A DNA stretch of 64,000 nt from a virus (IMGVR_UViG_3300032295_003763:96001-160000); one strand, 5' to 3'. Numbered from the stretch's first letter, positions 24,014 to 50,004 are shown. The notes: generated by a model from the sequence alone, not told the origin. Numbers and translations are program-made.

Positions 24014-24021
24014 AATAATTT

Positions 24022-27040: not shown

Positions 27041-27058
27041 AAACCTTACCAAAGAGGA

Positions 27059-28576: not shown

Positions 28577-28578
28577 TA

Positions 28579-28602
28579 AAAAGCCCTTATATAAGGGCTT
28601 TT
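28579..28602. terminator. Bidirectional terminator between convergent genes
   Basis: Perfect palindrome AAAAGCCCTTATATAAGGGCTTTT. Confidence 0.8.
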
Positions 28603-28605
28603 CTT

Positions 28606-29256: not shown

Positions 29257-29898
29257 TTAAATTGTGATTTTCTTTTCCCAAACCATAAAATTTACATCAA
29301 ATCTTCTTGGGTATGGATGTTCAGCAACAAGATTGAATTTTTTTGAAATCATATCATTAATATTTATACCATCATCTTCCCAATAAATAAGACCTGCGTT
29401 TTTATCATCTATCCCAACTGGAATAAATCTCTTATTTTCATTAACAGTAATAAATTTACCATCATTCTTTAATGAATCGTATATAAAATCAATATCTTCT
29501 TCTGGGGTCGGACTATGTTGCAAAACATAAATTGATATAATTGTATCGAATTTTTGGAAAAAATTTACCTTTTCATCTTCTGTTAAAGGTGTTGAAACTG
29601 GTATAAACTTTTTACTTGCAACGAATTGAGTTGCTGCTTGGAGCATAGGCAAACTAAAATCAAAACCATAACAAATACACCCTAAAGAGCTTATAAGCCC
29701 CTTTGATATTCTACCTACCCCACAACCATAATCTCCAATTACAGCATCATTGAATGCATATACATTATCTATGAAAAGTTTTACAGTTGTTTGAGTTTCC
29801 ATATCAAATTTATAGGAAACACCTGGTTCTGGTGAAAGACAAATTTCTTTAGCATGACCAATATCTCTTGGGTAAAACGCTTCTTTAACGTAATTCAT
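29257..29898 (-). CDS. Class I SAM-dependent methyltransferase
   Basis: DYGCGVGRI, GFDFS..ML, VLQH, LK.DG. Confidence 0.85.
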   Translation of the reverse strand: MNYVKEAFYPRDIGHAKEICLSPEPGVSYKFDMETQTTVKLFIDNVYAFNDAVIGDYGCGVGRISKGLISSLGCICYGFDFSLPMLQAATQFVASKKFIPVSTPLTEDEKVNFFQKFDTIISIYVLQHSPTPEEDIDFIYDSLKNDGKFITVNENKRFIPVGIDDKNAGLIYWEDDGININDMISKKFNLVAEHPYPRRFDVNFMVWEKKITI

Positions 29899-29902
29899 AA
29901 AA

Positions 29903-30913
29903 TTATCCTATACTAAATTCTTCAGCTAAGATAGTTAATTCTTCTCTAATTTTTTGAAATGGAACATCCCATTCACCATACTTAACTTGTCTAAATAATT
30001 TAACAGAATCATACCATTTTGAAGTTTCTTCAGGAACTGCCCATGTATAATATGGCATAACAGGAGTAATAATCCAAGTAGGAATCCCCATAGCTCCTGC
30101 CAAATGTGCTATAGAAGTACAAGAAGTTATTACTAAATCAAGACTAGCTATTATATTTGCTGTATCTTCCCAAGATTTTAAAGAATCTCTTAAATCTGAA
30201 AAAGGTAAGCCATCTATACAATTTTCATCTCTTTGAAGAGAATAAAATGTTGTATTTGGAACATCGTGCAAATTAATCATTAATTCAGGTGGGAATCTTC
30301 TATGTTGTTCATCTTCAAATTTAGGATTACCACTCCAACGTATTCCAACCTTTAAGGTATTTGTTTTTGCATAGAGTTTTGTTGGACTTTGGGGGATTAT
30401 AAAAGGTGATCCATCTAAATCATCATATTCCATATTTAATAGAAACGGAGAAGACATAGCTGGAACCCAATAATTATAATGAGCACCCATTACAATCTCA
30501 TTATCTACACAAATATATCCATGTCTAGAAAATAACTCTTTTAATTCAGGGGCGCATGATACAAGAACTCTCGCTCCCATATCTATAAATCTTTTAGCGA
30601 AACGAAAATTTGCTATTTGATCTCCAAATCCACCTTCACACCTAAAAAGAAGGGTTTTATTATCTAATGACTCATCTTTCCAAATTTTACCAGGAACTGG
30701 AGGTAATCCAAATACATCTATGTATCTACCATAGTTAAAGTGTTCAAATGCCTTTTTCATATTTCTATGGCGCATTTCATGCCAACCTAAATTGAAAAGT
30801 ACTCTTAAATCATCCTGTGGTTGATTGCGAAGTATATCTTCACTAATTTCTGGAAATCCATTTTTTGAGGCATCTAATGCCATATCTAATGGATGAATAG
30901 TCTTTTTTATCAT
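29903..30913 (-). CDS. TPR + GT9-like (GT-B) glycosyltransferase
   Basis: Short TPR (VLFNLGW), EGGFGDQI.F.RF, VGIRWSGNP, FYSLQ, SWEDTA.II..LDLVIT.CTS.AHLAGAMG.PTW, WY.SVKLFRQ..GEW. Confidence 0.85.
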   Translation of the reverse strand: MIKKTIHPLDMALDASKNGFPEISEDILRNQPQDDLRVLFNLGWHEMRHRNMKKAFEHFNYGRYIDVFGLPPVPGKIWKDESLDNKTLLFRCEGGFGDQIANFRFAKRFIDMGARVLVSCAPELKELFSRHGYICVDNEIVMGAHYNYWVPAMSSPFLLNMEYDDLDGSPFIIPQSPTKLYAKTNTLKVGIRWSGNPKFEDEQHRRFPPELMINLHDVPNTTFYSLQRDENCIDGLPFSDLRDSLKSWEDTANIIASLDLVITSCTSIAHLAGAMGIPTWIITPVMPYYTWAVPEETSKWYDSVKLFRQVKYGEWDVPFQKIREELTILAEEFSIG

Positions 30914-30972
30914 AGTAGAAAATGCACAAAAATATAATAATAGTAATTATATGAAATATATGTTTTTTGTTC

Positions 30973-33900
30973 TTACAAATTTGAAATAAAAATACTATGA
31001 GCCGATCCAGCTTCCGCATCAAACCAATTTGTAAGTAATCCTACTTGAACTGGGTTTGATCTAAATATGATATCCCCTAAACCTAATTCTCCATTTGAAT
31101 TATTACCCCAAGCCCAAAGTGTGCCATTTGTTTTAATAGCTAATGTATGTTGATTTTTACTAGAAATCCTTGACCAATCTGTAAGATTTCCTATCCGTAA
31201 AAAAGCTCTATTATTTAATGAAGCAGCTCCTATACGACTACTATCATTTGTACCCATTCCCCAAAGAGTTCCATCTGTTCTTATTGCCATTGTATATTGA
31301 GTACCAGCAGAAACTCTCTGCCAATCTGTAAGTGTCCCGATTTGAACGGGGGAAGAATATGATGTTTTATCATCTGTCCCTAATTGACCACTTGCATTAT
31401 GACCCCATCCCCAAAGAGTTCCATTTGTTTTTATTGCCATTGTATGACTATCTCCCGTTGTAACTCTCTGCCAATCTGTAAGTGTGCCTACTTGAACAGG
31501 AGATGAATAGTTTACCGCATTATTTGTCCCTAATCTACCTGATACAGTATTATTACCCCAAGCCCAAAGTGTGCCATTTGTTTTTATTGCCATTGTAAAT
31601 AAATTTCCAGCCTCAACACTTTGCCAATCTGTGAGTGTGCCTACTTGAACTGGGGATGAAGATAATGTAGTATTACCTGTTCCTAATTGACCTTGTGCAT
31701 TTTGACCCCAGGCCCAAAGAGTTCCATTTGTTCTTATTGCCATTGTATGTTGATTACCAGCAGATACGGTTTGCCAATTTGTATCAGCTCCTATTTGAAT
31801 AGGAGATGAAGTTTGAACAAAAGAATTATTACCTAAACCTCCAAATGAATTACTCCCCCAAGCCCAAAGAGTTCCGTTTGTTTTTACAGCCATTGTATGA
31901 AATGAACCCATCGAAACACTTTGCCAATTCGTATCTGCTCCTACTTGAAGAGGAGATGAATAATTAGTTGTATTCCCTGTTCCTAATTGTCCTTGTCCAT
32001 TAAAACCCCAAGCCCAAAGAGTTCCGTTTGTTTTTATTGCCATTGTACTACTACTTTCTGCAGCTATACTTTGCCAATCTGTAAGAGTTCCTACCTGTAC
32101 TGGTGAACTAGCATTATTTGTGTTGTTAATACCCAATTGACCAAATATATTCACACCCCATGACCATAAACTATTATTAGTTCTTACAGACAATGTATGA
32201 TTAATACCCGTAGCTACTAATGACCACCCTGTAAGTGTCCCCACTTGGACAGGTGACGATGTACCTCCTGCTGCTCTTCCAAGATATACCGATTCCCCAG
32301 CACTATAAATTTCCCGTAATGTATTAATAGCAAATGCAAAAGAAATACCTGTAGCTACAGTATCCCAGTTCGTCAAAGTTCCAATTTGTACTGGGCTTGA
32401 ATAAGTAACAAAATCATTTGTTCCTAATTGACCTTGAGTATTATCACCCCAAGCCCATAAAGTACCATTTGTTTTTATTGCAAAAGTAAAATTATGACTA
32501 GCGAATACTTTATTCCAATCTGTAAGAGTACCTACCTGAACAGGAGAAGAACGAGATGTTGTGTTACTTGTTCCTAGTTGACCGAGAGTATTAATCCCCC
32601 AAGCCCATAAAGTACCATTTGTTCTTATAGCCATAGTATGTGAGGAACTAGCTACAACACTCATCCAACCCCCAAGTGTTCCAATTTGAACTGGGGATAA
32701 TAATGCTGTATTATTTCCTGTTCCTAATTGACCTAGAATGTTCTCACCCCAAGCCCAAAGAGTTCCACCTGCTCGTATTGCCATTGTATGACTATTTCCA
32801 GCAGAAACACTGCTCCAATCCGTAAGCGTCCCTACCTGTACAGGTGAATTTCTAAGTGATCTATCATTCAGTCCCAATTGACCAGAACTATTCCTCCCCC
32901 AAGCCCAAAGACTTCCATCTGTTTTTATAGCAATATTATAACCATCACCAGGAGAAACAAATGACCAATTAGCAAGTGATCCTATTTGAACTGGTGAAGA
33001 TCCTGATACTGGTCTTCCTATAAATAATTCATTTAAACCAGTGGTATAAATTCTATTATTAGTAGTTATTGCTACAGAATGTGAACTTCCAGCTGAAACA
33101 TTTTGCCAATTTGTAAGTGCACCTACTTGAACTGGAGAGCTTTGATTTGTTGTATTTCCTAAACCAAGTTGAGCAAATTGATTGTTACCCCAAGCCCAAA
33201 GAGTCCCATTTGTTTTTACAGCCATTGTATGACTAGAACCAGCAGATACCTTACTCCAATCTGTTAGAACTCCAATTTGAACTGGAGAAGACCTATTACC
33301 AAAGACAATACCATTACCTAGTGCTCCATTAGACTGGGATCCCCATCCCCAAAGAGTCCCATTCGTTCTTATAGCCATCGTATGATTTTGATTCGCAGAA
33401 ACACTTTGCCAATTCGTATCTGCTCCTACTTGAAGAGGGGATGAATAGTTAGTTAGATTGCTTGTTCCTAGACGACCAGTTGCATTATTACCCCAAGCCC
33501 AAAGAGTTCCGTTTGTTTTTATTGCCATTGAATGACTTAAACCCGCAGAAACACTTTGCCAATCTGTGAGTATGCCTATCTGTACTGGTGAAGAATAACT
33601 TGTAGTATTACTGCTTCCTACTACACCATTTGCATTACTCCCCCATCCCCAAAGAGTTCCATTTGTTTTTATCGCTAAAGTATGTAATTGTCCCGCAGAA
33701 ACACTTTGCCAGTCTGTCAATGTGCCTACTTGAACTGGTGATTGTCTACTTGTTCTATCATTTAAACCTAATGCACCTACACCGTTATTACCCCAAGCCC
33801 AAAGAGTTCCGTTTGTTTTTATTGCCATTGTAAAAAATAAACCCGCAGAAACACTTTGCCAGTCTGTCAATGTGCCTACTTGAATAGGAGAGGAATAAAT

Positions 33901-34158
33901 GTTATCAAAATTACCCAATCCTAATTGACCATCTGTATTAGCACCCCATCCCCAAAGAGTTCCGTTTGTTTTTACAGACATTGTATGAGACCAACTAGAA
34001 GAAATGCTTTGCCAATTTGTATTAGCATCTAATTCAGTAAATTCAACTGCCGAAAATCCTCTACCTAATTCTCCAAAAGTAGATGAACCAGTAGACCAAA
34101 TATATCTTTCTATTATTATTACTATTTTTCTTGCCTGAACTATAATATCTTTTATCAT
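30973..34158 (-). CDS. RCC1-repeat beta-propeller protein (21 repeats), probable receptor-binding appendage
   Basis: 21 copies of ~50-aa TLWAWGxNxxGQLG...SSPVQVGTLTDW..VSAG..HTMAIKTNG. Confidence 0.9.
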   Translation of the reverse strand: MIKDIIVQARKIVIIIERYIWSTGSSTFGELGRGFSAVEFTELDANTNWQSISSSWSHTMSVKTNGTLWGWGANTDGQLGLGNFDNIYSSPIQVGTLTDWQSVSAGLFFTMAIKTNGTLWAWGNNGVGALGLNDRTSRQSPVQVGTLTDWQSVSAGQLHTLAIKTNGTLWGWGSNANGVVGSSNTTSYSSPVQIGILTDWQSVSAGLSHSMAIKTNGTLWAWGNNATGRLGTSNLTNYSSPLQVGADTNWQSVSANQNHTMAIRTNGTLWGWGSQSNGALGNGIVFGNRSSPVQIGVLTDWSKVSAGSSHTMAVKTNGTLWAWGNNQFAQLGLGNTTNQSSPVQVGALTNWQNVSAGSSHSVAITTNNRIYTTGLNELFIGRPVSGSSPVQIGSLANWSFVSPGDGYNIAIKTDGSLWAWGRNSSGQLGLNDRSLRNSPVQVGTLTDWSSVSAGNSHTMAIRAGGTLWAWGENILGQLGTGNNTALLSPVQIGTLGGWMSVVASSSHTMAIRTNGTLWAWGINTLGQLGTSNTTSRSSPVQVGTLTDWNKVFASHNFTFAIKTNGTLWAWGDNTQGQLGTNDFVTYSSPVQIGTLTNWDTVATGISFAFAINTLREIYSAGESVYLGRAAGGTSSPVQVGTLTGWSLVATGINHTLSVRTNNSLWSWGVNIFGQLGINNTNNASSPVQVGTLTDWQSIAAESSSTMAIKTNGTLWAWGFNGQGQLGTGNTTNYSSPLQVGADTNWQSVSMGSFHTMAVKTNGTLWAWGSNSFGGLGNNSFVQTSSPIQIGADTNWQTVSAGNQHTMAIRTNGTLWAWGQNAQGQLGTGNTTLSSSPVQVGTLTDWQSVEAGNLFTMAIKTNGTLWAWGNNTVSGRLGTNNAVNYSSPVQVGTLTDWQRVTTGDSHTMAIKTNGTLWGWGHNASGQLGTDDKTSYSSPVQIGTLTDWQRVSAGTQYTMAIRTDGTLWGMGTNDSSRIGAASLNNRAFLRIGNLTDWSRISSKNQHTLAIKTNGTLWAWGNNSNGELGLGDIIFRSNPVQVGLLTNWFDAEAGSAHSIFISNL

Positions 34159-34178
34159 AATTAATTCACTTTTTTGAT

Positions 34179-34628
34179 TTATAATGGTTCATTTGGCCAT
34201 ATAACTTCATCAGGTGAAGTATAATTAGTAATATCTCTTAATTCTTGTCTGTATATTCTCCATTCTTGCCTTTTTTCTTCACTCAAAGGAGAATCAGGTA
34301 ATTGTGTCCAATCACTTTCAAACAATAACCTATTACGCCTTTCTCTGATTTCTATCCATTTATATTCATTTTCCTGTTGAATTTCTTCTTCAGTCTTAGC
34401 TCTTCTTGTTTGATATTCAACAACTTCATCGTCTCCAATTTCAAAGTATGATCCACTAATTACGGAGTTTTCCATATTTGGTGCTTCAACGAATCTAAAA
34501 GGATACCAACCATATTCTTTTAATGTTTCATTATCAAATAAATAAAAATTGGAGAAATTTTGCCAATTTTTAGGCAAATCTCTATTATGATCTACAACTT
34601 GATTATTTTCTACTCTTGCGTATTTCAT
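34179..34628 (-). CDS. Tail fibre assembly chaperone
   Basis: W..IRERRN.LL.ESDWTQLPDSPL....W..YRQELRDIT....WP. Confidence 0.9.
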   Translation of the reverse strand: MKYARVENNQVVDHNRDLPKNWQNFSNFYLFDNETLKEYGWYPFRFVEAPNMENSVISGSYFEIGDDEVVEYQTRRAKTEEEIQQENEYKWIEIRERRNRLLFESDWTQLPDSPLSEEKRQEWRIYRQELRDITNYTSPDEVIWPNEPL

Positions 34629-34634
34629 ACTACA

Positions 34635-35006
34635 TTATATATTTTGACCACCAACAAAACCATACCAGTTTGTTCCACCATCTGTTGTTACAAAAGAAAA
34701 TACATCTCGTTTTCCATTTGTACTCGTTAAAGTAGGTGCAGTACCACTAGGCCATTTGATTGCAGGTGCCCACGCTACTCCTCTTGCTGTCCCATCTGCT
34801 GTAAAAATAAGAGTAAAACTGCCAGCAAAAGAACTTGATGGTACATTTGAAATAGTCATTAATGTAATACTAGCATTTAAACTCACATTAAAAATATTAC
34901 CATTAGACAAATTCAATGTAAGTTGACCAGCCGATATAGTAGGAGAAGTATAAATCTCTTTATAATTCTTTAACGTTCCTTTATCTATCGTTCCTAAAAA
35001 ATCCAT
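34635..35006 (-). CDS. Tail-fibre-associated small beta protein
   Basis: LNLSNGNIF.V.L..SFTLI...W....KWP.GTAPTLT....DVFSF.T.DGG.NWYG. Confidence 0.7.
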   Translation of the reverse strand: MDFLGTIDKGTLKNYKEIYTSPTISAGQLTLNLSNGNIFNVSLNASITLMTISNVPSSSFAGSFTLIFTADGTARGVAWAPAIKWPSGTAPTLTSTNGKRDVFSFVTTDGGTNWYGFVGGQNI

Positions 35007-35021
35007 TTTAAAACATTATTT

Positions 35022-35291
35022 TTAAACAAATGTCGTAATAAGTCCTGTTATATGAACAAGATAAAACTTATCGGATGCTGGCACAACTGCAAACGCTACA
35101 GTTAAAGTATCAACTGTTATTATATCGATATCTACCGCAACTTGTTCATATGTACTTTCATCCCATACTTGTACAATTAATTGTTGCCAACCTAGATTAT
35201 GAGTAACGGTAAAAACATTATTAATACCATCGCAATCAATTCTGAATCTATTATGACTCATTCCACTACTTGATATTACTGTTCCTGCCAT
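35022..35291 (-). CDS. Small fibre/baseplate-associated domain protein
   Basis: FTVTHNLG....VQVWD...Y..V..D. Confidence 0.65.
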   Translation of the reverse strand: MAGTVISSSGMSHNRFRIDCDGINNVFTVTHNLGWQQLIVQVWDESTYEQVAVDIDIITVDTLTVAFAVVPASDKFYLVHITGLITTFV

Positions 35292-35306
35292 ATAATTTCA
35301 TTTATT

Positions 35307-38300
35307 TTATACTACATTGAATTGACCATGTGAAGTAACTACAACCCATGATGTATTAGCAATTATACAAATCACCTCAATAGCAGCATATGCAATTCCA
35401 GTTGAATAATTAACTGATTCTATATATCCACCCGTTCCAGTTGTTGTTGTGAGTGATAAAAACGATATAGATTGACTAGCATTTTGAGCGATTCTATAAC
35501 CATTTGTACTCCTACTAACAATTCTAAATGAATCACCAACTGATGCTGTCGATGGAAGAGTAAATATCAATTGACTAACTCCATTTGAGATGTAATTAGA
35601 ATTACTTACTATAGATGTATTTATAGTAACTGTTGTCCATGCACTACTTCCTCCAGATGGACCTTGAGTACCTTGAACTCCTAATATACCTTGAATACCT
35701 TGTACACCTTGAGTACCTTGATTTCCTTGGTTTCCTTGAGTTCCTTGTGGACCCTGAGTACCTTGATTTCCTTGGTTACCTTGAGTTCCTTGTGGACCCT
35801 GTGTACCTTGAACTCCTTGAGTTCCCTGATTACCTTGGTTTCCTTGATTACCCTGAGCACCTTGAGTACCTTGATTTCCTTGGTTACCTTGGTTTCCTTG
35901 AGTTCCTTGTGGACCCTGAGTACCTTGATTTCCTTGGTTACCTTGAGTTCCTTGTGTACCTTGAACTCCTTGAGTTCCCTGATTACCTTGGTTACCTTGA
36001 TTACCCTGTGTACCCTGAGTACCTTGAGTACCCTGAACTCCTTGATCCCCTTGAGTTCCTTGTGATCCCTTTATACCTTGGTCACCTTGAGTACCTTGGT
36101 TTCCTTGATTACCCTGAGCACCTTGGGTTCCTTGGGTTCCTTGGGTTCCTTGTACACCCTGTACGCCTTGTGTACCTTGGAATCCTTGATTTCCTTGATT
36201 ACCTTGGTTTCCTTGATTACCCTGAGTACCTTGAGTACCTTGAGTACCCTGTGTTCCTTGAACTCCTTGAGTTCCTTGGTTTCCTTGATTGCCCTGAGTA
36301 CCTTGCACTCCTTGAGTACCTTGAGTACCCTGTGTCCCTTGAACTCCTTGAGTTCCTTGGTTTCCTTGAGTTCCTTGGTTTCCTTGATTACCTTGGTTTC
36401 CTTGATTGCCCTGAGTACCTTGCACTCCTTGAGTACCTTGAGTACCCTGTGTCCCTTGATTACCTTGAACTCCTTGTGTTCCTTGGTTTCCTTGATTTCC
36501 TTGATTACCTTGGTTTCCTTGATTACCCTGAGTACCTTGAACTCCTTGTGTTCCTTGGTTACCTTGATTACCTTGGTTTCCTTGATTACCTTGTCTACCC
36601 TGTACACCTTGTACACCCTGAGTACCTTGAGTACCCTGTGTACCTTGAACTCCTTGTGTTCCTTGGTTTCCTTGATTGCCTTGGTTTCCTTGATTGCCCT
36701 GAGTGCCTTGAGTACCCTGTACACCTTGAGTTCCTTGAGTACCCTGTGTACCTTGCACTCCTTGAGTACCTTGGGTTCCCTGAGTACCTTGAACTCCTTG
36801 AGTTCCTTGAGTACCCTGTGTACCTTGCACTCCTTGAGTACCTTGGGTTCCCTGAGTACCCTGAGCACCTTGAGTACCCTGCACTCCTTGAGTTCCTTGG
36901 TTTCCTTGATTGCCTTGGTTTCCTTGATTACCTTGGTTTCCTTGATTACCCTGAGTACCTTGAGTACCCTGTGTACCTTGAACGCCTTGAACACCCTGAG
37001 TACCTTGATTACCTTGGTTTCCTTGATTACCCTGAGTACCTTGAGTACCTTGTGTACCTTGGCTACCTTGATTACCTTGATTACCTTGGTTGCCCTGATT
37101 ACCCTGGGTTCCTTGAACACCTTGAGTACCTTGATTTCCTTGGTTTCCTTGGTTGCCCTGATTACCCTGGTTACCCTGGGTTCCTTGAACACCTTGAGTG
37201 CCTTGGCTACCTTGATTACCTTGGTTACCCTGAGCACCTTGAGTACCTTGTGTTCCCTGAGTGCCTTGAACTCCTTGAGTCCCCTGATTACCTTGATTAC
37301 CTTGAGTACCTTGAACTCCTTGTGTTCCTTGATTACCTTGGTTTCCTTGATTACCTTGTGCTCCCTGAGTACCTTGAACTCCTTGAGTCCCCTGATTACC
37401 TTGGTTACCCTGAGTACCTTGAGTGCCTTGTACACCTTGAGTGCCTTGATTACCCTGAGTGCCTTGAACTCCTTGAGTCCCCTGATTACCTTGGTTACCT
37501 TGGTTACCTTGATTACCTTGGGTTCCCTGAGTGCCTTGAACTCCTTGAGTTCCCTGATTACCCTGATTACCTTGGTTACCTTGAGTTCCCTGAGTGCCTT
37601 GAACTCCTTGAGTTCCCTGATTACCTTGGTTGCCCTGGGTTCCTTGAACTCCTTGAACTCCTTGAATTCCTTGTGTACCCTGACTTCCCTGGTTACCTTG
37701 TGGACCTTGCGTACCAGTTGGACCCAATGTAGTGACTACATAAGAATAATGTTGAGTACCTTCGGTATAAAATGTAACAGTTCTATTTTGGTTATCTAAA
37801 TTATTCAGATATAAATTAAGTATTAACCTATCTGTTAAATTTAGAGAAGCAGTTGTTGCTACGGCATTTGCCTTTACTTCTACTGGTGTAGTGTTATTTA
37901 CTGACCATCCAATAGCAACTGTATCAGAAGTAAACAACAATGTAGTAGTTGCTCCATCATATTTAGATACAGTAAAGTAATATTGTAAATCATCATTTTC
38001 AGCATTTTTAGTCCAATAGATATAAGCGTGCCAAAGACCATTTGGAATCAAAATAACATTCGGATCCCCAGAATTTGTGATCCAGCCTGAATCAACAAGA
38101 ACATTTTGTTGATTAGCAGTCAAATTGGTTACTACTGTCGTTTGTCCAGCAGTAGTTGTAGATTTTGATAATTGTCTATAAGGACTTGGGGTTTGTGCTA
38201 CGGACGAATTAAGGAAATAACTGATACCTCCAGAAATTCCACTTATACCTTCATTTCCTTGGGTACCTTGAACTCCTTGAACCCCTTGGACACCTTGTGT

Positions 38301-41300: not shown

Positions 41301-41747
41301 AACAATTGAGTGTGTGACTATTTGACCTTGACCTTCTGAAACATTAAATGTAGTTCCACCGATTGTAGCACTTAAAAAACCCCCTGTTTTTATACCTGTA
41401 ATTTCTATCCCTTCAATATTATTATTTTCTTCTACTAACCATTTATTATCCCCATAATATACAATAGTTATACCCTGACCTTTACCATCCCATAAATATT
41501 GCGAGTTACCTTGAATAGTAGCACCAGTATCACTACTATTAGGCTTAATGATAATATTACTTACATAATTTGCAGTATCTAATATATGTAACTTATAGCC
41601 AAAAGAAATTATACTCCCAGACGCTGTAATCTGAGGTAGCGTTAATATAGAACCCCCAGCATTAGAACCAGTTACTCGAACTAATTCATAAAGTTGATTT
41701 ATACTAAGATTACCAGTTGACCAATTATATGTATTTTTATACCCCAT
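35307..41747 (-). CDS. Giant collagen-like fibre protein (2146 aa) with two GXQ tracts split by a globular domain
   Basis: N-terminal ~465-aa fibre-type domain; GXQ tracts 40346-38229 and 37724-35652; C-terminal TLPSTASVGD fibre module. Confidence 0.9.
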   Translation of the reverse strand: MGYKNTYNWSTGNLSINQLYELVRVTGSNAGGSILTLPQITASGSIISFGYKLHILDTANYVSNIIIKPNSSDTGATIQGNSQYLWDGKGQGITIVYYGDNKWLVEENNNIEGIEITGIKTGGFLSATIGGTTFNVSEGQGQIVTHSIVSGELSQDITEVKWNAFANQTITNLLTDPFTYIYIDSTGALQQKTTPFTDDDYKNYIVIGHLCHINLTNVNLVTTDPFTSYGVNHKVYEILNTLGPIKKEGLNISANGNNLRIDRASGKAYIIGNNYSSDPFEPDITTLTPSTPSSLCRMYADGSGGFVYDNNSGTFYTDIDPASYDDGDGTLATVSTNKWSVQRLFQIPDSPSDIIVYYGVKEYSSLGSALNGLPYEAFAESPITLQNAVFLGYLVIRGGATDLSSGSDAIFIQGGLIRSLSSGGGESVTNINLDDLNDVTITTPADGAYLGYQTSTGLWIDYPAPLDGAQGAQGVQGTQGDTGVQGNQGTQGAQGVQGTLGFDGAQGAQGVQGTLGFDGAQGPQGVQGTLGFDGAQGTQGVQGAQGVQGTQGNQGNQGNQGNQGTQGVQGTQGVQGVQGTQGNQGTQGVQGTQGVQGVQGTQGNQGNQGRQGNQGNQGNQGTQGPQGTQGIQGITGLQGISGYNGLNGEQGTQGTQGVQGTQGNQGNQGNQGNQGNQGTQGVQGTQGNQGNQGNQGTQGTQGNQGNQGTQGDQGVQGTQGSQGSQGSQGVQGTQGNQGNQGTQGAQGNQGNQGNQGTQGDQGVQGTQGNQGNQGTQGAQGNQGNQGNQGNQGTQGDQGVQGTQGNQGNQGTQGAQGNQGNQGTQGDQGVQGTQGNQGNQGTQGDQGVQGTQGNQGNQGTQGVQGTQGTQGNQGNQGNQGTQGDQGVQGTQGAQGNQGNQGTQGTQGVQGNQGNQGDQGVQGNQGTQGTQGVQGNQGNQGNQGNQGTQGVQGTQGNQGNQGNQGNQGNQGTQGTQGVQGNQGNQGTQGDQGVQGTQGTQGNQGTQGVQGTQGNQGNQGNQGNQGNQGNQGTQGTQGVQGNQGNQGNQGTQGVQGTQGNQGNQGTQGTQGTQGVQGNQGNQGNQGTQGVQGTQGNQGNQGNQGNQGTQGVQGTQGNQGNQGNQGNQGTQGTQGVQGNQGNQGNQGNQGTQGTQGVQGVQGVQGTQGNEGISGISGGISYFLNSSVAQTPSPYRQLSKSTTTAGQTTVVTNLTANQQNVLVDSGWITNSGDPNVILIPNGLWHAYIYWTKNAENDDLQYYFTVSKYDGATTTLLFTSDTVAIGWSVNNTTPVEVKANAVATTASLNLTDRLILNLYLNNLDNQNRTVTFYTEGTQHYSYVVTTLGPTGTQGPQGNQGSQGTQGIQGVQGVQGTQGNQGNQGTQGVQGTQGTQGNQGNQGNQGTQGVQGTQGTQGNQGNQGNQGNQGTQGVQGTQGNQGTQGVQGTQGTQGNQGNQGTQGVQGTQGAQGNQGNQGNQGTQGVQGTQGNQGNQGTQGVQGTQGTQGTQGAQGNQGNQGSQGTQGVQGTQGNQGNQGNQGNQGNQGTQGVQGTQGNQGNQGNQGNQGSQGTQGTQGTQGNQGNQGNQGTQGVQGVQGTQGTQGTQGNQGNQGNQGNQGNQGNQGTQGVQGTQGAQGTQGTQGTQGVQGTQGTQGTQGVQGTQGTQGTQGVQGTQGTQGTQGVQGTQGTQGNQGNQGNQGNQGTQGVQGTQGTQGTQGVQGVQGRQGNQGNQGNQGNQGTQGVQGTQGNQGNQGNQGNQGNQGTQGVQGNQGTQGTQGTQGVQGTQGNQGNQGNQGNQGTQGNQGTQGVQGTQGTQGTQGVQGTQGNQGNQGTQGVQGTQGTQGTQGTQGNQGNQGNQGNQGFQGTQGVQGVQGTQGTQGTQGAQGNQGNQGTQGDQGIKGSQGTQGDQGVQGTQGTQGTQGNQGNQGNQGTQGVQGTQGTQGNQGNQGTQGPQGTQGNQGNQGNQGTQGAQGNQGNQGNQGTQGVQGTQGPQGTQGNQGNQGTQGPQGTQGNQGNQGTQGVQGIQGILGVQGTQGPSGGSSAWTTVTINTSIVSNSNYISNGVSQLIFTLPSTASVGDSFRIVSRSTNGYRIAQNASQSISFLSLTTTTGTGGYIESVNYSTGIAYAAIEVICIIANTSWVVVTSHGQFNVV
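35652..40346. repeat. 9-bp coding tandem repeat (sense CAA GGT/GGA NNN), interrupted at 37725-38228
   Basis: ccttg periodicity every 9 nt. Confidence 0.95.
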
Positions 41748-41813
41748 TGGGTATTGATTTTTATTTTATTTGGGATTATACCTTTATGGGTACAATTTAT
41801 ATTCTCCTTTGCC

Positions 41814-41821
41814 TATATATC
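41814..41821 (-). promoter_or_regulatory. GATATATA putative late promoter
   Basis: 66 nt upstream of 41747. Confidence 0.6.
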
Positions 41822-41895
41822 TTAAAATCAAAGTCTAAACTATAGTCATAGACATTATTAAGAATTAAGAAATGTATTCTCAAATATTTTCAAGA

Positions 41896-43542: not shown

Positions 43543-43543
43543 A

Positions 43544-46500
43544 TTAGTAAGTTGGATCTTTTAAAGTCAGCATATTAGTAATTAAAGGCTGACGAGTTAA
43601 GTTAAATACAATAGCAGTTCCAGTTGCACTAGGATCTTTATAATTTGTAATACAATCAGTACCTATTACCATACCATAAGAACCACTAGAACTTACACCC
43701 ACATCGGTTATTACTCCATAGTTTGTTGAAGAATCACTATAAAATATTACGTCACTCAGTTCGCAATAATAATCTGAATATGTCTTAGCATCAATCTTTA
43801 TAATAATTGCTGGATTACCAGATGTGTATGATTTTACAATACTATTTTTAAGTATTACTAAATTTTGAACATTATTTGTATCAGGGAAGTGTTTAATAAT
43901 TCCATTTGTTGATGTCGATGTTCCATGTATAGAACCTAAAACAAATGAAAATGCTACTGCACCTGTCACTGAAACAACTTCAACACTAGAAGAAGTTGAA
44001 TATAAATTACATCTTGATAAACTTACTTCAGAAAGTGTAGATAAGGATGCTGATGATAAGTCTAATATCATTCCAGCAGATTTAACTGTTATATCTGTTA
44101 GTTTTACTCTAACATCAGATGCACCATTTGTAGATAAAAATTTACTTGATGAGTTTGATAATATAAATTTACTTTGAATTAAACTATCATCATAAGTTGA
44201 ACCATTATCTTTTCCAGTTATTGAAAGAGCATCTATATGTGCCATATCGAATAAAATAGAACTACCAGAATATGTTATAGAAGTACTAGAATTTAATTCA
44301 ATGTATAAACTTGTTAAATCATTAGTCCATGTTGGTGATGTTGTCTCTGAATAAATCCCAGGTAAAATATGTATAGTATAGCCGTTTAAACTATTTGTCG
44401 ATAAATAATTAATTGCAGATACTATTGTTCTCCAAGGTTTTGTTAAATCACCCACAACTGGATTATATGCAGAATAAGGACCAACGTATCCTGCATCACT
44501 GGAAGAATCTGATCCATAATTATCAACATATAAAATATTTTTAAATTGGAAATTAGGTCCAATAGCACCTTGAACACCTATAATACCTTGAATACCCTGA
44601 ATACCCTGAATACCTTGAACACCTTGATCTCCTTGAGTTCCTTGAACACCTTGATCACCTTGAGTGCCTTGGTTGCCTTGAGCACCATCATAACCTTGAT
44701 CTCCTTGAGTTCCTTGAACACCTTGAGCACCATCATAACCTTGATCACCTTGAGTGCCTTGGTTACCTTGAGCACCATCATAACCTTGATCGCCTTGAGT
44801 GCCTTGAACACCTTGAGTACCGTCATAACCTTGATCACCTTGAGTGCCTTGGTTACCTTGGTTACCCTGAGTACCTTGAACACCTTGATCCCCCTGGGTT
44901 CCTTGATTGCCCTGATTACCTTGATTACCCTGGTTACCTTGAACTCCTTGAATCCCTTGGGTTCCCTGAACTCCTTGAGTACCTTGACTACCTTGGTTAC
45001 CTTGGTTACCTTGATTTCCTTGGGTACCTTGAACACCCTGATCACCTTGGGATCCTTGATTCCCTTGATTCCCCTGGTTACCTTGAGTACCTTGGTTACC
45101 TTGAGTACCTTGAACTCCTTGATCTCCTTGGGTGCCTTGATTTCCCTGATTTCCTTGATTGCCCTGATTCCCTTGGTTACCTTGAACCCCCTGAATCCCT
45201 TGGGTTCCCTGAACTCCTTGAGTACCTTGACTACCTTGGTTTCCTTGGTTTCCTTGGTTTCCTTGATTACCCTGTGTACCTTGAACACCTTGATCTCCTT
45301 GAGTTCCTTGATTACCCTGATTACCCTGATTTCCTTGGTTACCTTGATTTCCTTGAACACCTTGAATCCCTTGCGTTCCTTGAGCACCTTGATTTCCTTG
45401 ATTCCCTTGGTTACCTTGATTTCCTTGATTCCCTTGGTTACCCTGAACACCTTGATCTCCTTGGGTGCCTTGGTTACCTTGATTTCCTTGGTTACCTTGA
45501 TTTCCTTGAACACCTTGAATCCCTTGCGTTCCTTGAGCACCTTGATTTCCTTGATTCCCTTGGTTACCTTGATTTCCTTGATTCCCTTGGTTACCTTGGT
45601 TACCTTGAGTACCCTGAACACCTTGAGTTCCCTGTGAACCTTGGTTACCCTGATTACCTTGATTACCTTGGTTACCTTGATTACCTTGAGTACCCTGAAC
45701 ACCTTGAGTTCCCTGTGAACCTTGATTGCCCTGATTTCCTTGGTTACCTTGAGTACCTTGAGTACCTTGAGTTCCCTGAACGCCTTGTGTACCTTGTGTA
45801 CCTTGGTTGCCTTGATTACCTTGATTACCCTGGTTACCTTGATTACCTTGAACTCCTTGAGTACCCTGAGCACCTTGATTTCCTTGGTTACCTTGGTTTC
45901 CTTGTGTACCCTGAGTTCCTTGATTACCTTGATTACCCTGAGTACCTTGAACACCTTGTGTTCCTTGGTTACCTTGATTTCCTTGATTACCCTGGTTACC
46001 TTGATTACCCTGAACACCTTGAATCCCTTGAGTACCTTGAGCACCTTGATTTCCTTGGTTACCTTGGTTACCTTGGTTTCCTTGTGTACCTTGAGTTCCC
46101 TGAACACCTTGTGTACCTTGAACCCCTTGAGTGCCCTGCGTACCTTGGTTTCCTTGATTACCCTGATTACCTTGAGTTCCCTGTACACCTTGTGTACCTT
46201 GAACCCCTTGAGTACCTTGGGTTCCTTGATTACCTTGGTTACCCTGATTTCCTTGATTACCCTGAACACCTTGAGTACCTTGAACTCCTTGAGTGCCCTG
46301 TGTACCTTGGTTACCTTGATTCCCTTGATTACCCTGAACTCCTTGAATTCCTTGAGTACCCTGAGCACCTTGATTCCCTTGATTACCTTGGTTTCCTTGA
46401 TTACCCTGATTGCCTTGGTTACCCTGATTACCTTGAGTACCTTGAACCCCTTGGGCACCCTGTGTACCTTGGTTACCTTGATTCCCTTGATTACCCTGAA

Positions 46501-47677
46501 CTCCTTGAATTCCTTGAGTACCCTGAGCACCTTGATTCCCTTGATTACCTTGATTACCTTGGTTACCTTGGTTACCTTGAGTACCTTGAACCCCTTGTGT
46601 ACCTTGAACTCCCTGAGTACCCTGTGTACCTTGAACCCCTTGAGTTCCCTGTGTACCCTGCTCACCATTTAAACCATTATAACCAGATATACCCTGAAGA
46701 CCAGTAATACCTTGTACCCCTTGAGTACCTTGTGGTCCTTGATTACCTTGGTTACCTTGGTTACCTTGGTTACCTTGTCTTCCTTGATTGCCCTGATTAC
46801 CCTGAGCCCCTTGGACACCTTGTGTACCCTGTGTTCCTTGATTACCTTGATAACCCTGAACACCTTGTTCACCTTGAGTTCCTTGAACACCCTGAGCACC
46901 TTGAGCACCCTGTGAACCATCTATACCTTGATAACCTTGTGATCCCACAAAACCATCTTTACCTTGAAGACCTTGAGTACCCTGTGCACCGTTTATACCT
47001 TGATAGCCCTGGTCTCCACGTTCTCCTTGATCACCTTTAATACTAATACCAATGGGACCCTGTAAACCAATTTGACCTTGCTGTCCAGTTATGCCTTGAT
47101 TACCTTGTTGACCATTCGGACCTTGAAATCCTTGAATACCTCTTAAACCTTGAATACCTTGAGTACCTTGAGTACCTCTTCCTTGAACACCTTGAGTTCC
47201 TTGCAAACCCTGAACACCTTGTTCACCCAATCCAGATTGCTGAGGACCTAATGCTCCTTGATTACCTTGATTTCCTTGTCTACCTTGAGATCCAGAACAC
47301 CCCTGTGGACCTTGACTACCATCTGATCCATCTGTACCATCTGAACCAGAAAGACCTTGAGGACCTTGATCACCCAGCCCCGATTGTTGAGGCCCCATAA
47401 CACCTTGCAAGCCTATACCAGTAGGCCCCTGATGTCCTTGATAACCTACTATACCTCGAACACCTTGAAATCCTTGATTACCAACAGGTCCCTGAATACC
47501 TTGGATACCACGCAAACCTTGAATACCTTGGTTTCCTTGAGTACCACGTCCTTGTGTACCCTGCGGTCCCTGTATACCTTGTAAACCTTGATCTCCAATA
47601 CCTTGAAGACCTTGTATACCTTGAAATCCTAATACTCCATTGGTTTCATCAAGAATAATGTTATAAATAATTGACAT
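43544..47677 (-). CDS. Collagen-like fibre protein (1377 aa) with a C-terminal right-handed beta-helix-like domain
   Basis: ~1030 aa of GXQ triplets; C-terminal LYVD..GSD..G..KPWRTI..AI..TIHILPG.YSE. Confidence 0.88.
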   Translation of the reverse strand: MSIIYNIILDETNGVLGFQGIQGLQGIGDQGLQGIQGPQGTQGRGTQGNQGIQGLRGIQGIQGPVGNQGFQGVRGIVGYQGHQGPTGIGLQGVMGPQQSGLGDQGPQGLSGSDGTDGSDGSQGPQGCSGSQGRQGNQGNQGALGPQQSGLGEQGVQGLQGTQGVQGRGTQGTQGIQGLRGIQGFQGPNGQQGNQGITGQQGQIGLQGPIGISIKGDQGERGDQGYQGINGAQGTQGLQGKDGFVGSQGYQGIDGSQGAQGAQGVQGTQGEQGVQGYQGNQGTQGTQGVQGAQGNQGNQGRQGNQGNQGNQGNQGPQGTQGVQGITGLQGISGYNGLNGEQGTQGTQGVQGTQGTQGVQGTQGVQGTQGNQGNQGNQGNQGNQGAQGTQGIQGVQGNQGNQGNQGTQGAQGVQGTQGNQGNQGNQGNQGNQGNQGNQGAQGTQGIQGVQGNQGNQGNQGTQGTQGVQGTQGVQGNQGNQGNQGNQGTQGTQGVQGTQGVQGTQGNQGNQGNQGTQGTQGVQGTQGVQGTQGTQGNQGNQGNQGNQGAQGTQGIQGVQGNQGNQGNQGNQGNQGTQGVQGTQGNQGNQGTQGTQGNQGNQGNQGAQGTQGVQGNQGNQGNQGNQGNQGTQGTQGVQGTQGTQGTQGNQGNQGNQGSQGTQGVQGTQGNQGNQGNQGNQGNQGSQGTQGVQGTQGNQGNQGNQGNQGNQGNQGNQGAQGTQGIQGVQGNQGNQGNQGNQGTQGDQGVQGNQGNQGNQGNQGNQGNQGAQGTQGIQGVQGNQGNQGNQGNQGNQGTQGDQGVQGTQGNQGNQGNQGNQGSQGTQGVQGTQGIQGVQGNQGNQGNQGNQGNQGTQGDQGVQGTQGNQGTQGNQGNQGNQGSQGDQGVQGTQGNQGNQGNQGSQGTQGVQGTQGIQGVQGNQGNQGNQGNQGTQGDQGVQGTQGNQGNQGTQGDQGYDGTQGVQGTQGDQGYDGAQGNQGTQGDQGYDGAQGVQGTQGDQGYDGAQGNQGTQGDQGVQGTQGDQGVQGIQGIQGIQGIIGVQGAIGPNFQFKNILYVDNYGSDSSSDAGYVGPYSAYNPVVGDLTKPWRTIVSAINYLSTNSLNGYTIHILPGIYSETTSPTWTNDLTSLYIELNSSTSITYSGSSILFDMAHIDALSITGKDNGSTYDDSLIQSKFILSNSSSKFLSTNGASDVRVKLTDITVKSAGMILDLSSASLSTLSEVSLSRCNLYSTSSSVEVVSVTGAVAFSFVLGSIHGTSTSTNGIIKHFPDTNNVQNLVILKNSIVKSYTSGNPAIIIKIDAKTYSDYYCELSDVIFYSDSSTNYGVITDVGVSSSGSYGMVIGTDCITNYKDPSATGTAIVFNLTRQPLITNMLTLKDPTY
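44555..47638. repeat. 9-bp coding tandem repeat (GXQ collagen)
   Basis: ccttg/ccctg periodicity. Confidence 0.95.
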
Positions 47678-47709
47678 GCTAAAGGTAATCTTTAATTGCC
47701 ATAAATAAA

Positions 47710-47752
47710 TTATGGAATTCCTCGGTTATATATCCGAAATGGAATTCCATAA
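47710..47752 (-). promoter_or_regulatory. GATATATA motif (47727-47734) enclosed in a long inverted repeat
   Basis: TTATGGAATTCC/GGAATTCCATAA outer arms plus TCGG/CCGA inner arms around the motif. Confidence 0.6.
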
Positions 47753-47793
47753 AGTAATAAAAAGGCAAATTTTATTTTCTTGGGTATTTTTAT

Positions 47794-49956
47794 TTATCTC
47801 AATCGTTCTACCGAAAACTGAAGTGGATTAGTAGAAATACAAATAACTTCAAACATTGGTTTACCATTTGCATCTTCGAATTCTCCCGATGCTATACTTG
47901 TAATTTGAATAGAGTACGGAGCAGTCAATTTCGATACATTTTGAGCATCTGTTAATACGAAAAATCTAAAAATTCCAAAAGTATTATCAACATCTACACC
48001 CGCCCCACCAAAAGAAACTTTTAAGCTTTGGCCAACTTTCCATTTATTTAGAGTATCATCAACAAATAAGACTATATTTCTATCAGAATTTAAGATATTT
48101 ACTGTATCAATTCTTAAGTAATTATTTGCTGGCTGTAAAGGATGTGTATAATTCCAAGAATCCGCACCCTTGAACCAGTCTTGTTCCATTATGGTTATAG
48201 GTTTATTTGTAAGATTATACGATCCAAATGTATTCCTTAGTCTTACTCTATTTACAATACTTCTATCTACTTCAATACCATCAACTTTTGGTTCAGTATA
48301 TAAAATATCAGCATTATATGAAACTGATATAGGAGTATTATTATTTATTAGATCTTGAAACTGTTGATAGTTTCTATCAATCAATTCAATAATAGCCCCT
48401 GTATCCTTTATTAAAGCATCTGATGCCTGTAAAGAATTTTCAACAGCTGTTAATCTTGCTTGTATTTCTTCTTCAACTGTGCTATTTATTAAAGATTGTT
48501 CTACATCTTCTACTCTTGTCTTTAAATTACTAAGTTCAAAAACAGCAGTTTCTAAATTGCGAGATGCTCTAACCATTTCATTCATGGCTCCAACATACAC
48601 TTCTAATGAAAATGTAGAATAATCATTAACCGATGTTTCGATCGCTGCATCTTCTGTATTTACATCAAATCTAAAACGAACTGCAATGTTATATGAAGTA
48701 CCATTAGTACCTAAAATTGAATCAGGTTTGATTTTAGATAATGTAGGTATTTTACCACCACCATCGTCAGTTGGATCAACATTATCTAAGAATAAAACAC
48801 CAAATAAATTAGTCTCTGCTTGATCTGGGAATCCCTTTGGGAAGGTTTCATAATAAACTAAGACAGCATTAAATTCAAAACTGCTAGAAGCCTCAGTTGC
48901 ATTAAATTGATGCCAAGAATTTATTCTTGAATCTTGGACAGCACCTAAATATGAATTTAGGTCAAAATCAACCATAATACCATCAAGGCGCGATCTTAGA
49001 TATGTAACTGGTGTAAATTTACCAGTTTGTATATTTACACCTGTTATACGGAGCTTATCATTTCTCCAATCGTCAAATCGTACTGGCTCAGAAAAATATG
49101 AATTTGCTTGTGGACTAGGGAACCAATATCCACTCTCCCAAGTATCAGTCGTTTCATTATATTTTTCTAATGTATAATCAGTATTACTATAGGATCCAGT
49201 ATCAGAGTCAAAATAACCCAAAAAGTTCAATCCAAATGGATGAGTATCATTAGGACCTCTACCAACGATATACTCATTCTTCAATGGATCCGTTGGAGTA
49301 TTTTGAATATACATATCTGGGAAATAGTTTTCATCCGATACGGATTTAAACATTACAACTGGTGTATTACCATCTTTTGTGGGTATATGACAAAAGAATT
49401 CTGTAAATGTATTTGCAGTATGTCTTACAGAATTAACAACATCAATTTCGCCAATATACTTTACTACTCTACTATAATCAATCCCACCAGTAGTTGTACC
49501 ATCAGATTCATCTTCTTCAACAAATCTTTGCCCAGTTACTAAATTTGATACTTCCGATGTATTAGCTTCTCTAAATCTTAAAGCACCTATTTCTTTCATC
49601 CATTTCCAAAATAATCTTTCAGAAACAGTTCTATTGCTTATCTGGTTATAATCTTCTTTTGATGTAAGAAGCGTTTCAAAATTTAATAGATAGTTTTGAA
49701 AAGATTCTGATAAATATCTATTCCAATCGCTACCAGTTACCTGTAAATATGCCCCTGGGATAGTATCTAATTGAATTGTATTTGAATCAGCTGTATTATC
49801 TAAAATTTTTGGTATGTTCAATAATACATATTTACTAAAACGCATAGTTCTCGAATCATCTCCATATGCAAAAGACATATCTTCTGCAGTAGAAGGCATT
49901 ATATAAAATGTACCACCTTGCGTTTTAATCGGTTTAATAAATGGAGTAACTGCCAT
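47794..49956 (-). CDS. Putative virion structural protein (possible fibre anchor) with a coiled coil
   Basis: 720 aa; heads the fibre cluster; late-type promoter; FEFNAVLVYY..NLFGVLFLD. Confidence 0.55.
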   Translation of the reverse strand: MAVTPFIKPIKTQGGTFYIMPSTAEDMSFAYGDDSRTMRFSKYVLLNIPKILDNTADSNTIQLDTIPGAYLQVTGSDWNRYLSESFQNYLLNFETLLTSKEDYNQISNRTVSERLFWKWMKEIGALRFREANTSEVSNLVTGQRFVEEDESDGTTTGGIDYSRVVKYIGEIDVVNSVRHTANTFTEFFCHIPTKDGNTPVVMFKSVSDENYFPDMYIQNTPTDPLKNEYIVGRGPNDTHPFGLNFLGYFDSDTGSYSNTDYTLEKYNETTDTWESGYWFPSPQANSYFSEPVRFDDWRNDKLRITGVNIQTGKFTPVTYLRSRLDGIMVDFDLNSYLGAVQDSRINSWHQFNATEASSSFEFNAVLVYYETFPKGFPDQAETNLFGVLFLDNVDPTDDGGGKIPTLSKIKPDSILGTNGTSYNIAVRFRFDVNTEDAAIETSVNDYSTFSLEVYVGAMNEMVRASRNLETAVFELSNLKTRVEDVEQSLINSTVEEEIQARLTAVENSLQASDALIKDTGAIIELIDRNYQQFQDLINNNTPISVSYNADILYTEPKVDGIEVDRSIVNRVRLRNTFGSYNLTNKPITIMEQDWFKGADSWNYTHPLQPANNYLRIDTVNILNSDRNIVLFVDDTLNKWKVGQSLKVSFGGAGVDVDNTFGIFRFFVLTDAQNVSKLTAPYSIQITSIASGEFEDANGKPMFEVICISTNPLQFSVERLR

Positions 49957-49996: not shown

Positions 49997-50004
49997 TATA
50001 TATC
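49997..50004 (-). promoter_or_regulatory. GATATATA putative late promoter
   Basis: 40 nt upstream of 49956. Confidence 0.7.

Follow-up and report, generated by a model that had tools for sequence, protein, structure and literature searches.

Virion protein glycosylation is, to our knowledge, documented for very few phages. Mycobacteriophages glycosylate their own virion proteins, namely capsid and tail-tube proteins, by means of other glycosyltransferase (GT) families, and in the exosporium of Bacillus anthracis the Thr-rich collagen-like filament BclA is O-glycosylated and carries a methylated terminal sugar, with the enzymes encoded nearby. In this work we analysed a ten-gene locus (g1 to g10), best read as a virion fibre locus, that lies at positions 29257-49956 of a 64,000-nt stretch of viral DNA (IMGVR_UViG_3300032295_003763:96001-160000; hereafter, the window), and in which a soluble GT (g9) is encoded between an RCC1-repeat protein (g8) and a methyltransferase (g10). 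From sequence comparison, we give about an even chance to the reading that, in a late-expressed fibre module, g9 adds the priming sugar to the RCC1 propeller protein g8 and g10 tailors the resulting glycan.

The closest described systems are two types of protein GT. TibC is a protein O-heptosyltransferase encoded beside its repeat-protein substrate, with a four-stranded N-lobe and a β-barrel at residues 1-97 (PMC4358343). The BAHT enzymes (TibC/TibA, Aah/AIDA-I; PDB 4rap, 4rb4) are soluble cytoplasmic GT9-type enzymes of GT-B fold, which are encoded beside a repeat adhesin and hyper-glycosylate its Ser residues before export (PMC4358343). FlmG of Caulobacter crescentus is a flagellin O-glycosyltransferase of 596 aa, in which a TPR domain of ~300 aa binds the flagellin substrate (PMC7591256); it is a soluble enzyme that decorates flagellins with pseudaminic acid, and its work on this structural protein is done in the cytoplasm, ahead of assembly. 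In T4-like cyano- and pelagimyophages the host recognition cluster is hypervariable and includes tail fibres, collagen repeats, concanavalin-like domains and GTs; the paper on pelagimyophages assigns these GTs to host O-antigen modification, and RCC1 is mentioned zero times in it (PMC7029224). A search of the literature found no publication describing an RCC1/GT9 cassette.

The window is contained in an IMG/VR record of 199,927 bp, with a completeness of ~52% (CheckV). Judged from its gene content, the source virus is an uncultured, distant jumbo T4-like myovirus: the T4-like marker genes are those for a tail sheath of 1310 aa, the tail tube, the topoisomerase II subunits and gp46/gp47-like SbcCD. 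Topoisomerase II is ~29% identical to that of known phages, and when the DNA was compared with that of cultured phages no close relative emerged. The minus strand dominates most of the window. An earlier model-made note on this DNA (the first-pass annotation) had claimed ten co-oriented genes at 29257-49956, and ten minus-strand open reading frames (ORFs) are exactly there, numbered here in transcription order and separated by intergenic gaps of 1-148 nt, in a co-oriented run that extends past g1-g10. The three genes of main interest are the following:

30973..34158, minus strand: g8, RCC1-repeat protein of 1061 aa, with 21 blades, that is three seven-bladed propellers
29903..30913, minus strand: g9, soluble GT of 336 aa, with two TPR-like helix pairs (~8-64) and a GT9-type GT-B domain (80-336)
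29257..29898, minus strand: g10, class I S-adenosylmethionine (SAM)-dependent methyltransferase of 213 aa, starting 4 nt after g9

The RCC1 protein and the adjacent glycosyltransferase

As a synteny set we considered 80 IMG/VR loci encoding g9 homologues (39-97% identity, with flanks of up to 10 kb), and all their ORFs were compared with the proteins of the window. We considered collagen as present in a locus at 15 or more G-X-Y triplets, and the collagen counts refer to the loci with at least 6 kb upstream (n = 42). An RCC1-repeat gene was found in 75 out of 75 loci having upstream DNA. Precisely, where 1 kb or more of upstream DNA was available (70 loci), the end of the RCC1 gene was at most ~100 nt from the GT start in 63, and within 2 kb in the remainder. 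Collagen was present in 11 of the 42 well-flanked loci and absent from 31. When the loci were divided by GT identity, collagen was present in 9/14 at 70% or more, in 0/9 at 55-70% and in 2/19 at 35-55%. The co-occurrence of GT and collagen genes was the check asked for by the first-pass annotation, which had taken the collagen fibres as the glycosylated substrate, and it came out largely against collagen, RCC1 being always present.

The same arrangement is found in two cultured cyanophages, BUCT-ZZ01 and S-SRM01, in which an RCC1 gene is directly upstream of the GT homologue and beside annotated tail-fibre genes; no collagen was found within 12 kb of the RCC1-GT pair in either phage. The upstream RCC1 gene of BUCT-ZZ01, a Synechococcus phage, is annotated as 'BNR repeat domain protein', and its GT homologue (L002, 8281-9996) is 571 aa long, with a C-terminal extension of ~230 residues carrying a 'GCGxxxL' motif. 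A GT-methyltransferase fusion was considered for this protein and not established, the Methyltransf_11 match being sub-threshold (E 0.007) and BLAST giving no similarity to g10.

As controls, we considered 80 cellular GT relatives (28-44% identity), in which an RCC1 neighbour was found in only three cases, all of them among the four closest, and 75 phage records with RCC1 proteins, in which a GT was found only in the two with the most g8-like protein. A GT homologue was present in only 5 of 50,697 phage records. According to these cellular-relative and phage-RCC1 controls, the RCC1-GT linkage is specific.

The RCC1 assignment of g8, already proposed in the first-pass annotation together with LamG, chaperone and SAM methyltransferase types for other genes of the locus, agrees with the Pfam matches, as do the other three (in g3, g7 and g10, respectively). 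The g8 product matches PF25390 (RCC1/WD40_RLD) with E 1e-277 and 920 bits and PF00415 in 17 stretches, its blades are ~50 aa long, and the repeats come in sets of seven, as in RCC1-like β-propellers. In the relatives, the partner RCC1 proteins have lengths of ~375, 725, 1065, 1430, 1800, 2140, 2480 and 2870 aa, corresponding to one to eight tandem propellers of ~360 aa each. Because these lengths are quantised in this way, they suggest a beads-on-a-string fibre. The single-propeller forms encoded in distant IMG/VR loci share the N-terminal leader 'MPNFSGxWxLxEQxQAxAAGxW'.

As for g9, an AlphaFold model obtained from a 37-sequence alignment has a predicted local distance difference test score (pLDDT) of 94.2 and places residues 80-336 in a GT-B fold. 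The structural matches by VIA were the GT9 family protein 3tov (Z 16.7), WaaF (1psw, 16.1), TibC (4rap/4rb4, 15.9), and WaaC (2h1h) and others (15.3); those to GT9 enzymes span 225-244 residues, the next unrelated tier has Z of 13 or less, and the Foldseek probability is 1.00. Sequence searches with g9 against PDB, NCBIfam and Pfam at default thresholds gave no match, and useful information came solely from the fold and from the family profile; some fused g9 relatives score up to 44.9 bits against the Pfam GT9 family (PF01075). At positions 3-63 the family profile resembles TPR repeats, OGT and SPINDLY being among the proteins matched, with single-stretch E values from ~4e-5 to 1e-3, and the model has four or five TPR-like helices at residues 1-65, the TPR part amounting to about two repeats. 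The name TPR-GT given to g9 in the first-pass annotation is therefore appropriate, considering both the GT9-type GT-B model and the TPR match of the family profile. Asp98, in the motif 'EGGFGD' directly after strand 87-91, is conserved in at least 90% of 37 relatives (alignment A1) and is, by position only, a putative counterpart of the catalytic Asp of WaaC (D13) and TibC (D110). H270 and other GT9-type motif residues are, like Asp98, conserved across the g9 relatives.

The close homologues of g9 form 1632 clusters, mostly 73-94% identical, on phage-like contigs. The wider family has 31,952 representatives at 50% clustering, and many of them are giant proteins with three to six tandem copies, counted as matched stretches. 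Eight of the representatives were scanned with Pfam, and a sulfotransferase domain was found in five and TPR repeats in two.

The comparison with the described systems gives a mixed picture. The g9 model and TibC superpose with Z 15.9 and a root-mean-square deviation of 3.0 Å over 244 residues, at a sequence identity of ~13%. In each of them the N-lobe is four-stranded, and ~12 residues after the start of the catalytic domain there is an Asp. Unlike TibC, g9 has a TPR-like helical cap and lacks the N-terminal β-barrel; moreover, neither the four-Cys iron finger nor a C-lobe insertion was found in alignment A1 and the model. The Cys residues of g9 are at positions 92, 120, 135, 232 and 265, and none of them is among the invariant or at least 90%-conserved columns of alignment A1. 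The substrate proposed for g9 is a β-propeller, whereas that of TibC-type enzymes is a β-helix. Because the β-barrel and the four-Cys iron finger of TibC are both missing, we consider g9 as an enzyme that resembles the BAHT enzymes in its predicted mechanism, yet is not a member of them. FlmG was compared by architecture, and it shares with g9 an N-terminal TPR part and a C-terminal GT-B domain, although g9 has only about two TPR-like repeats. Two motifs of g9, the G-D one that follows β1 and one with an H in the C-lobe, are shared by the lipopolysaccharide (LPS) heptosyltransferases WaaC/WaaF and the GT9 enzymes (2h1h, 1psw, 3tov); the WaaC/WaaF-type enzymes lack a TPR cap, and their substrate is the lipid-linked LPS core.

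The g10 product matches PF08241, PF08242 and PF13847 (E from 5e-10 to 2e-9), and its homologues were found behind the GT in 13 of the 80 viral loci and in a Patescibacteria contig (L083). In the relatives, the slot between the GT and a chaperone gene like g7 (described below) contains from zero to three small genes, which according to Pfam encode a GT2 enzyme in 25 loci, a Methyltransf_24/TylF-like O-methyltransferase in 17, a g10-like methyltransferase in 13 and a GT25 enzyme in 10, besides a DXD-type GT; in more distant loci a sulfotransferase is fused to the GT itself. In one relative, genes for GT1/GT4-methyltransferase and GT4-GT9 fusions are followed by a collagen gene, RCC1, GT and chaperone, and the terminase and portal genes begin ~4 kb downstream. 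Because the slot holds varying GT, methyltransferase and sulfotransferase genes, we read it as the signature of a priming transferase accompanied by interchangeable glycan-tailoring enzymes. Two more GT2-family genes are present in the window, at 52109-53173 and 60761-61564 (both on the minus strand). One separates the genes of the two topoisomerase II subunits, and the other precedes the sheath operon at a short distance; a role in the same glycan pathway is conceivable, as is one in DNA or host modification.

Fibre genes, transcription signals and the rest of the window

The other seven genes of the locus, in transcription order, are the following:

47794..49956, minus strand: g1, conserved virion-type protein of 720 aa, with a central coiled coil (~448-537)
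43544..47677, minus strand: g2, collagen-like protein of 1377 aa, with 335 G-X-Y triplets (unbroken run of 276) and then a C-terminal domain of 335 aa
41896..43542, minus strand: g3, protein of 548 aa, with a LamG/concanavalin-like domain at 180-337 and a further C-terminal domain
35307..41747, minus strand: g4, collagen-like fibre protein of 2146 aa, with 467 G-X-Y triplets
35022..35291, minus strand: g5, protein of 89 aa, like the C-terminal domains of virion/decoration proteins (phrog_8309, phrog_2647, phrog_16122, E ~1e-8)
34635..35006, minus strand: g6, protein of 123 aa, equivalent to the domain that forms the C-terminal tip in tail-fibre proteins
34179..34628, minus strand: g7, tail-fibre assembly chaperone of 149 aa

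The two collagen-like proteins have in total 802 G-X-Y triplets, 276 of which are GNQ, 227 GTQ and 113 GVQ, so that the statement of the first-pass annotation that the fibres contain well over a hundred Gly-Thr-Gln triplets is correct. The Y position is Gln in 89-96% of the triplets and Pro is almost absent. Pfam PF01391 matches a tract edge (E 2.4e-8), and the tracts are long and uninterrupted, as expected for collagen repeats: the longest unbroken runs are of 276, 236 and 231 triplets, for which lengths of ~237, ~203 and ~198 nm were computed at the standard rise of 0.286 nm per residue. Such tracts (~200-240 nm) are of similar length to vertebrate fibrillar collagen, and unbroken runs of 231-276 triplets imply very long appendages. 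From its N-terminus, g4 has a tail-fibre-like domain (1-467; phrog_16641 and phrog_5668, tail fibre), a run of 236 triplets, a globular knot of 166 aa, a second run, of 231 triplets, and finally a tail-fibre-like tip at the C-terminal end (2035-2146; phrog_5073 and phrog_819); g4 would therefore be two rods of ~200 nm joined by the 166-residue knot. No homologue of the g2 C-terminal domain was found in PDB, Pfam, PHROGs or the near-length classes of a 5.8-billion-protein search, apart from the copy in G001, a closely related contig (97%-related) from another sample, in which the g2 C-terminus is 100% identical. The same contig has the same long tracts, and the coding repeats of the tracts are only ~70% alike; for these two reasons, a gross misassembly of the collagen tracts is unlikely. 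Three further collagen-like genes are present elsewhere in the genome fragment, far from the GT. One of them is in the window (5329-6945, minus strand; 538 aa, ~91 G-X-Q triplets), and its C-terminal domain has 'GNYSTxxGG'-type repeats reminiscent of YadA-head motifs, while the other two ORFs, at 174472-175737 and 199155-199925 in genome coordinates, fall beyond the window.

The smaller fibre genes have recognisable relatives. The g3 product matches PF13385 (Laminin_G_3; E 2e-22), phrog_8510 'virion structural protein' (E 2e-23) and PDB 4qvs, an S-layer-domain protein (E 1.5e-9); the NIDO domain reported in the first-pass annotation was not recovered, since a Pfam scan of residues 340-548 at E of 10 or less gave only GEVED (E 1.9). 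Tail-fibre matches were obtained for g6 (phrog_7760, E 3e-18; phrog_9017, E 9e-17), and in the relatives a g6-type domain terminates the fibre gene, often collagen-bearing, that is directly upstream of the RCC1 gene. The g7 product matches PF16778 (Phage_tail_APC) with E 1.3e-18 and 67 bits, against a cut-off of 26.6, and phrog_4912 with E 6e-20, and its homologue comes after the GT cassette in most relatives.

For g1 no Pfam or PHROG match was found, and Foldseek on its AlphaFold2 model, of mediocre quality (pLDDT 66.6), gave nothing at E of 0.001 or less. Its homologues form more than 1000 clusters of constant length (712-734 aa), on contigs of up to 320 kb. The best VIA matches of its C-terminal domain, to the N-terminal domains of CBA120 TSP4 and to a Klebsiella phage baseplate protein, have a Z of 6.8, which is below the reliable range; the resemblance to gp10-type tailspike/baseplate attachment domains (Z 6.8 or below) is hence too weak to assign. 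In the relative G003, g1 and the GT are not syntenic. We take g1 as a probable baseplate or fibre-anchor protein, conserved and outside the variable cassette.

A late-promoter-like motif, GATATATA, is found 17 times in the window versus 6.8 expected, with 15 of the 17 on the minus strand, and copies of it precede the genes of the sheath, the tube, g1, g2 and g4 by 22-67 nt. In and around the locus, the signals relevant to transcription are the following:

49997-50004: GATATATA, upstream of g1
47727-47734: GATATATA, upstream of g2
41814-41821: GATATATA, upstream of g4
35421-35428: GATATATA, within the 3' end of g4 and before g5
28578-28603, minus strand: strong intrinsic-terminator-like hairpin, with an 11-bp stem followed by a T run, which probably ends the transcription unit

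The window scan found no GATATATA motif belonging to g8, g9 or g10. Because these three genes are without a motif of their own and the terminator-like hairpin is farther downstream, the GT g9 and the methyltransferase g10 seem to share a transcript with the fibre genes. Between g10 and the hairpin there are a thioredoxin gene (28606-28893, minus strand) and a gene for a T5orf172/MUG113-domain protein (28883-29215, minus strand). Considering the tail-fibre PHROG matches (both ends of g4, g6 and g7) and the late-promoter-like motifs, placed as they are before the sheath and tube genes, the best reading of the locus is that of a virion fibre locus, in particular a late-expressed accessory-fibre (host-recognition) module.

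Elsewhere in the window, the tail sheath gene (56258-60190, minus strand) encodes a product about twice the usual length, and its similarity to sheath families (phrog_34521, phrog_23) is confined to the C-terminal ~350 residues. A full-length DnaJ homologue, with J domain, CxxCxGxG and C-terminal domain, is encoded at 62038-63042 (minus strand). Two adjacent recombination-nuclease genes are within 22343-25914 (minus strand), upstream of a gp47/SbcD-like gene at 25934-27052: the 556-aa product (22343-24013) matches SbcC-like (gp46-type) proteins and the 630-aa product (24022-25914) matches exonuclease families in its C-terminal half, and the pair may be a split or duplicated gp46.

Candidate acceptors and rival explanations

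From the gene content, folds, synteny and co-occurrence described above, we infer a course of events in which a substrate, a site and a first sugar can be proposed and the RCC1 protein would be part of the virion. The conserved cassette would consist of an RCC1 gene, a TPR-capped GT of GT9 fold, zero to three tailoring enzymes and a tail-fibre chaperone, in this order. The soluble g9 would bind the newly made RCC1 propeller by means of its TPR-like cap and, still in the cytoplasm and ahead of virion assembly, attach the first sugar to it; g10 would then methylate that sugar, whereas the relatives would use GT2, GT25, TylF-like O-methyltransferases or the fused sulfotransferase instead. RCC1 is favoured as the substrate because the GT adjoins it near-invariantly and collagen is only sometimes present. 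The late structural setting is proposed since GATATATA precedes g1, g2 and g4, the chaperone and fibre-tip domains flank the RCC1-GT pair, and in one relative the cassette is near the terminase and portal genes. In this respect, the claim of a glycosylated, methyl-capped appendage made in the first-pass annotation is plausible, in view of the fibre locus, the protein-type GT with its methyltransferase and the tailoring genes of the relatives, while its choice of collagen as the substrate is not supported.

The candidate attachment sites are the Ser-Ser-Pro sequences (SSP) of the blades. The motif [R/K]-S-S-P-V-Q-[V/I]-G recurs in nearly every blade of g8 and in the blades of 15 single-propeller relatives, with Ser-Ser-Pro nearly invariant. 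Among 19 RCC1 sequences linked to a GT, 18 have SSP at a rate of 0.4-0.95 per 50 aa, the exception being that of S-SRM01, and SSP was found in none of the six GT-less phage RCC1 proteins, a contrast that is suggestive only because it is confounded by phylogeny, the GT-linked RCC1 proteins making up one subfamily. An N-G-T sequon of g8 (in 'KTNGTLW') was also considered, as an HMW1C-like N-glycosylation site, and was dropped, since the relatives mostly carry Asp.

Several observations weigh against the proposal that g9 glycosylates g8, and the confounded SSP contrast is one of them. The RCC1 protein of S-SRM01, beside the most distant GT, is without SSP. The g9 sequence falls under the Pfam GT9 threshold for PF01075 (11.3 bits versus 22, E 0.21, residues 251-279 only), and it has Cys265 where many family members have Asp, a position which we take, from a motif reading and not from an alignment, to be that of the Asp in the GT9 'DSG' motif. 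In g8, neither the sequence nor Pfam revealed a recognisable attachment domain. A search of the 200-kb fragment for ADP-heptose synthesis genes (PF01467, PF13580) found none, a negative result which says little because the record is only ~52% complete. The adjacency of the two genes could reflect a non-enzymatic partnership. Finally, GT9 enzymes are classically LPS heptosyltransferases.

This classical role is the starting point of the likeliest of the alternatives, an explanation we nevertheless consider unlikely, according to which the GT and the methyltransferase modify, during infection, the LPS core or some other glycan of the host envelope, for example as a superinfection block, and their location among fibre genes merely reflects a hypervariable host recognition cluster. 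The GTs in the cluster of pelagimyophages are read in that way (PMC7029224), and the two GT2 genes of the window outside the locus fit it too. However, it leaves unexplained the RCC1 adjacency across 39-97% identity and its loss in the cellular relatives, as well as the TPR cap, which is substrate-binding in FlmG (PMC7591256), and the late-operon position before a fibre chaperone. A somewhat more improbable case is that of the RCC1-GT as a non-structural pair, in which the propeller, as a targeting or regulatory subunit, would direct the GT elsewhere, to a host protein or a different virion protein, or in which the GT-like protein would help to assemble the propeller and have no catalytic role. 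The absence from g8 of a recognisable virion-attachment domain and the C265 of g9 would agree with this, and PHROGs places RCC1 proteins under 'DNA, RNA and nucleotide metabolism'; yet Asp98, H270 and other GT9-type motif residues are conserved, one to eight tandem propellers fit a fibre better than an adaptor, and tailoring enzymes accompany the GT.

The least probable explanation, in our opinion, is the one closest to the first-pass annotation, namely that the GT and the methyltransferase O-glycosylate the Thr-rich G-T-Q tracts of g2 and g4, in a BclA-like way, giving a methyl-capped fibre coat of 200-400 nm. The 227 G-T-Q triplets are in the same locus and orientation as the GT, and in the closest clade (GT identity of at least 70%) the 9 of 14 well-flanked loci with a collagen gene often have it directly upstream of RCC1. 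Against this, no collagen is present in 31 of the 42 well-flanked loci, in all nine at 55-70% and in both cultured cyanophages, where RCC1 is always there; the three other collagen-like genes of the genome lie far from the GT; and a GT homologue occurs in only 5 of 50,697 phage records, though collagen-like phage proteins are common (PMC3368898). The likeness to BclA is also limited, since the triplets of g2 and g4 are G-X-Q and not G-P-T, the tracts are several-fold longer, and the GT co-occurs with RCC1 and not with collagen. The further suggestion that the glycans act as bait for Bacteroidota found no support, the nearest cultured relatives of the module being cyanophages.

The reading that g9 primes and g10 tailors a glycan on the RCC1 propellers is thus the one we prefer, with the per-blade Ser-Ser-Pro as a suggestive candidate site. 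A bolder version of it, which we propose tentatively and with less confidence, is that aquatic T4-like and jumbo phages own a self-contained system of protein glycosylation in the cytoplasm, in which the TPR-GT9 enzyme hyper-glycosylates the RCC1 blades, in one to eight propellers, and interchangeable methyl-, sulfo- and glycosyltransferases diversify the glycan, so as to make a programmable glyco-adhesin of the virion, in the present phage at the tips of collagen fibres of 200-400 nm. With 1632 clusters of close homologues and its presence in cultured cyanophages, the cassette GT is experimentally tractable. If it does decorate receptor-binding propellers, there would be a post-translational layer on host range and virion stability in abundant aquatic phages, and the principle of TibC and FlmG, a protein GT encoded beside its repeat substrate, would be extended to viruses and to β-propellers.

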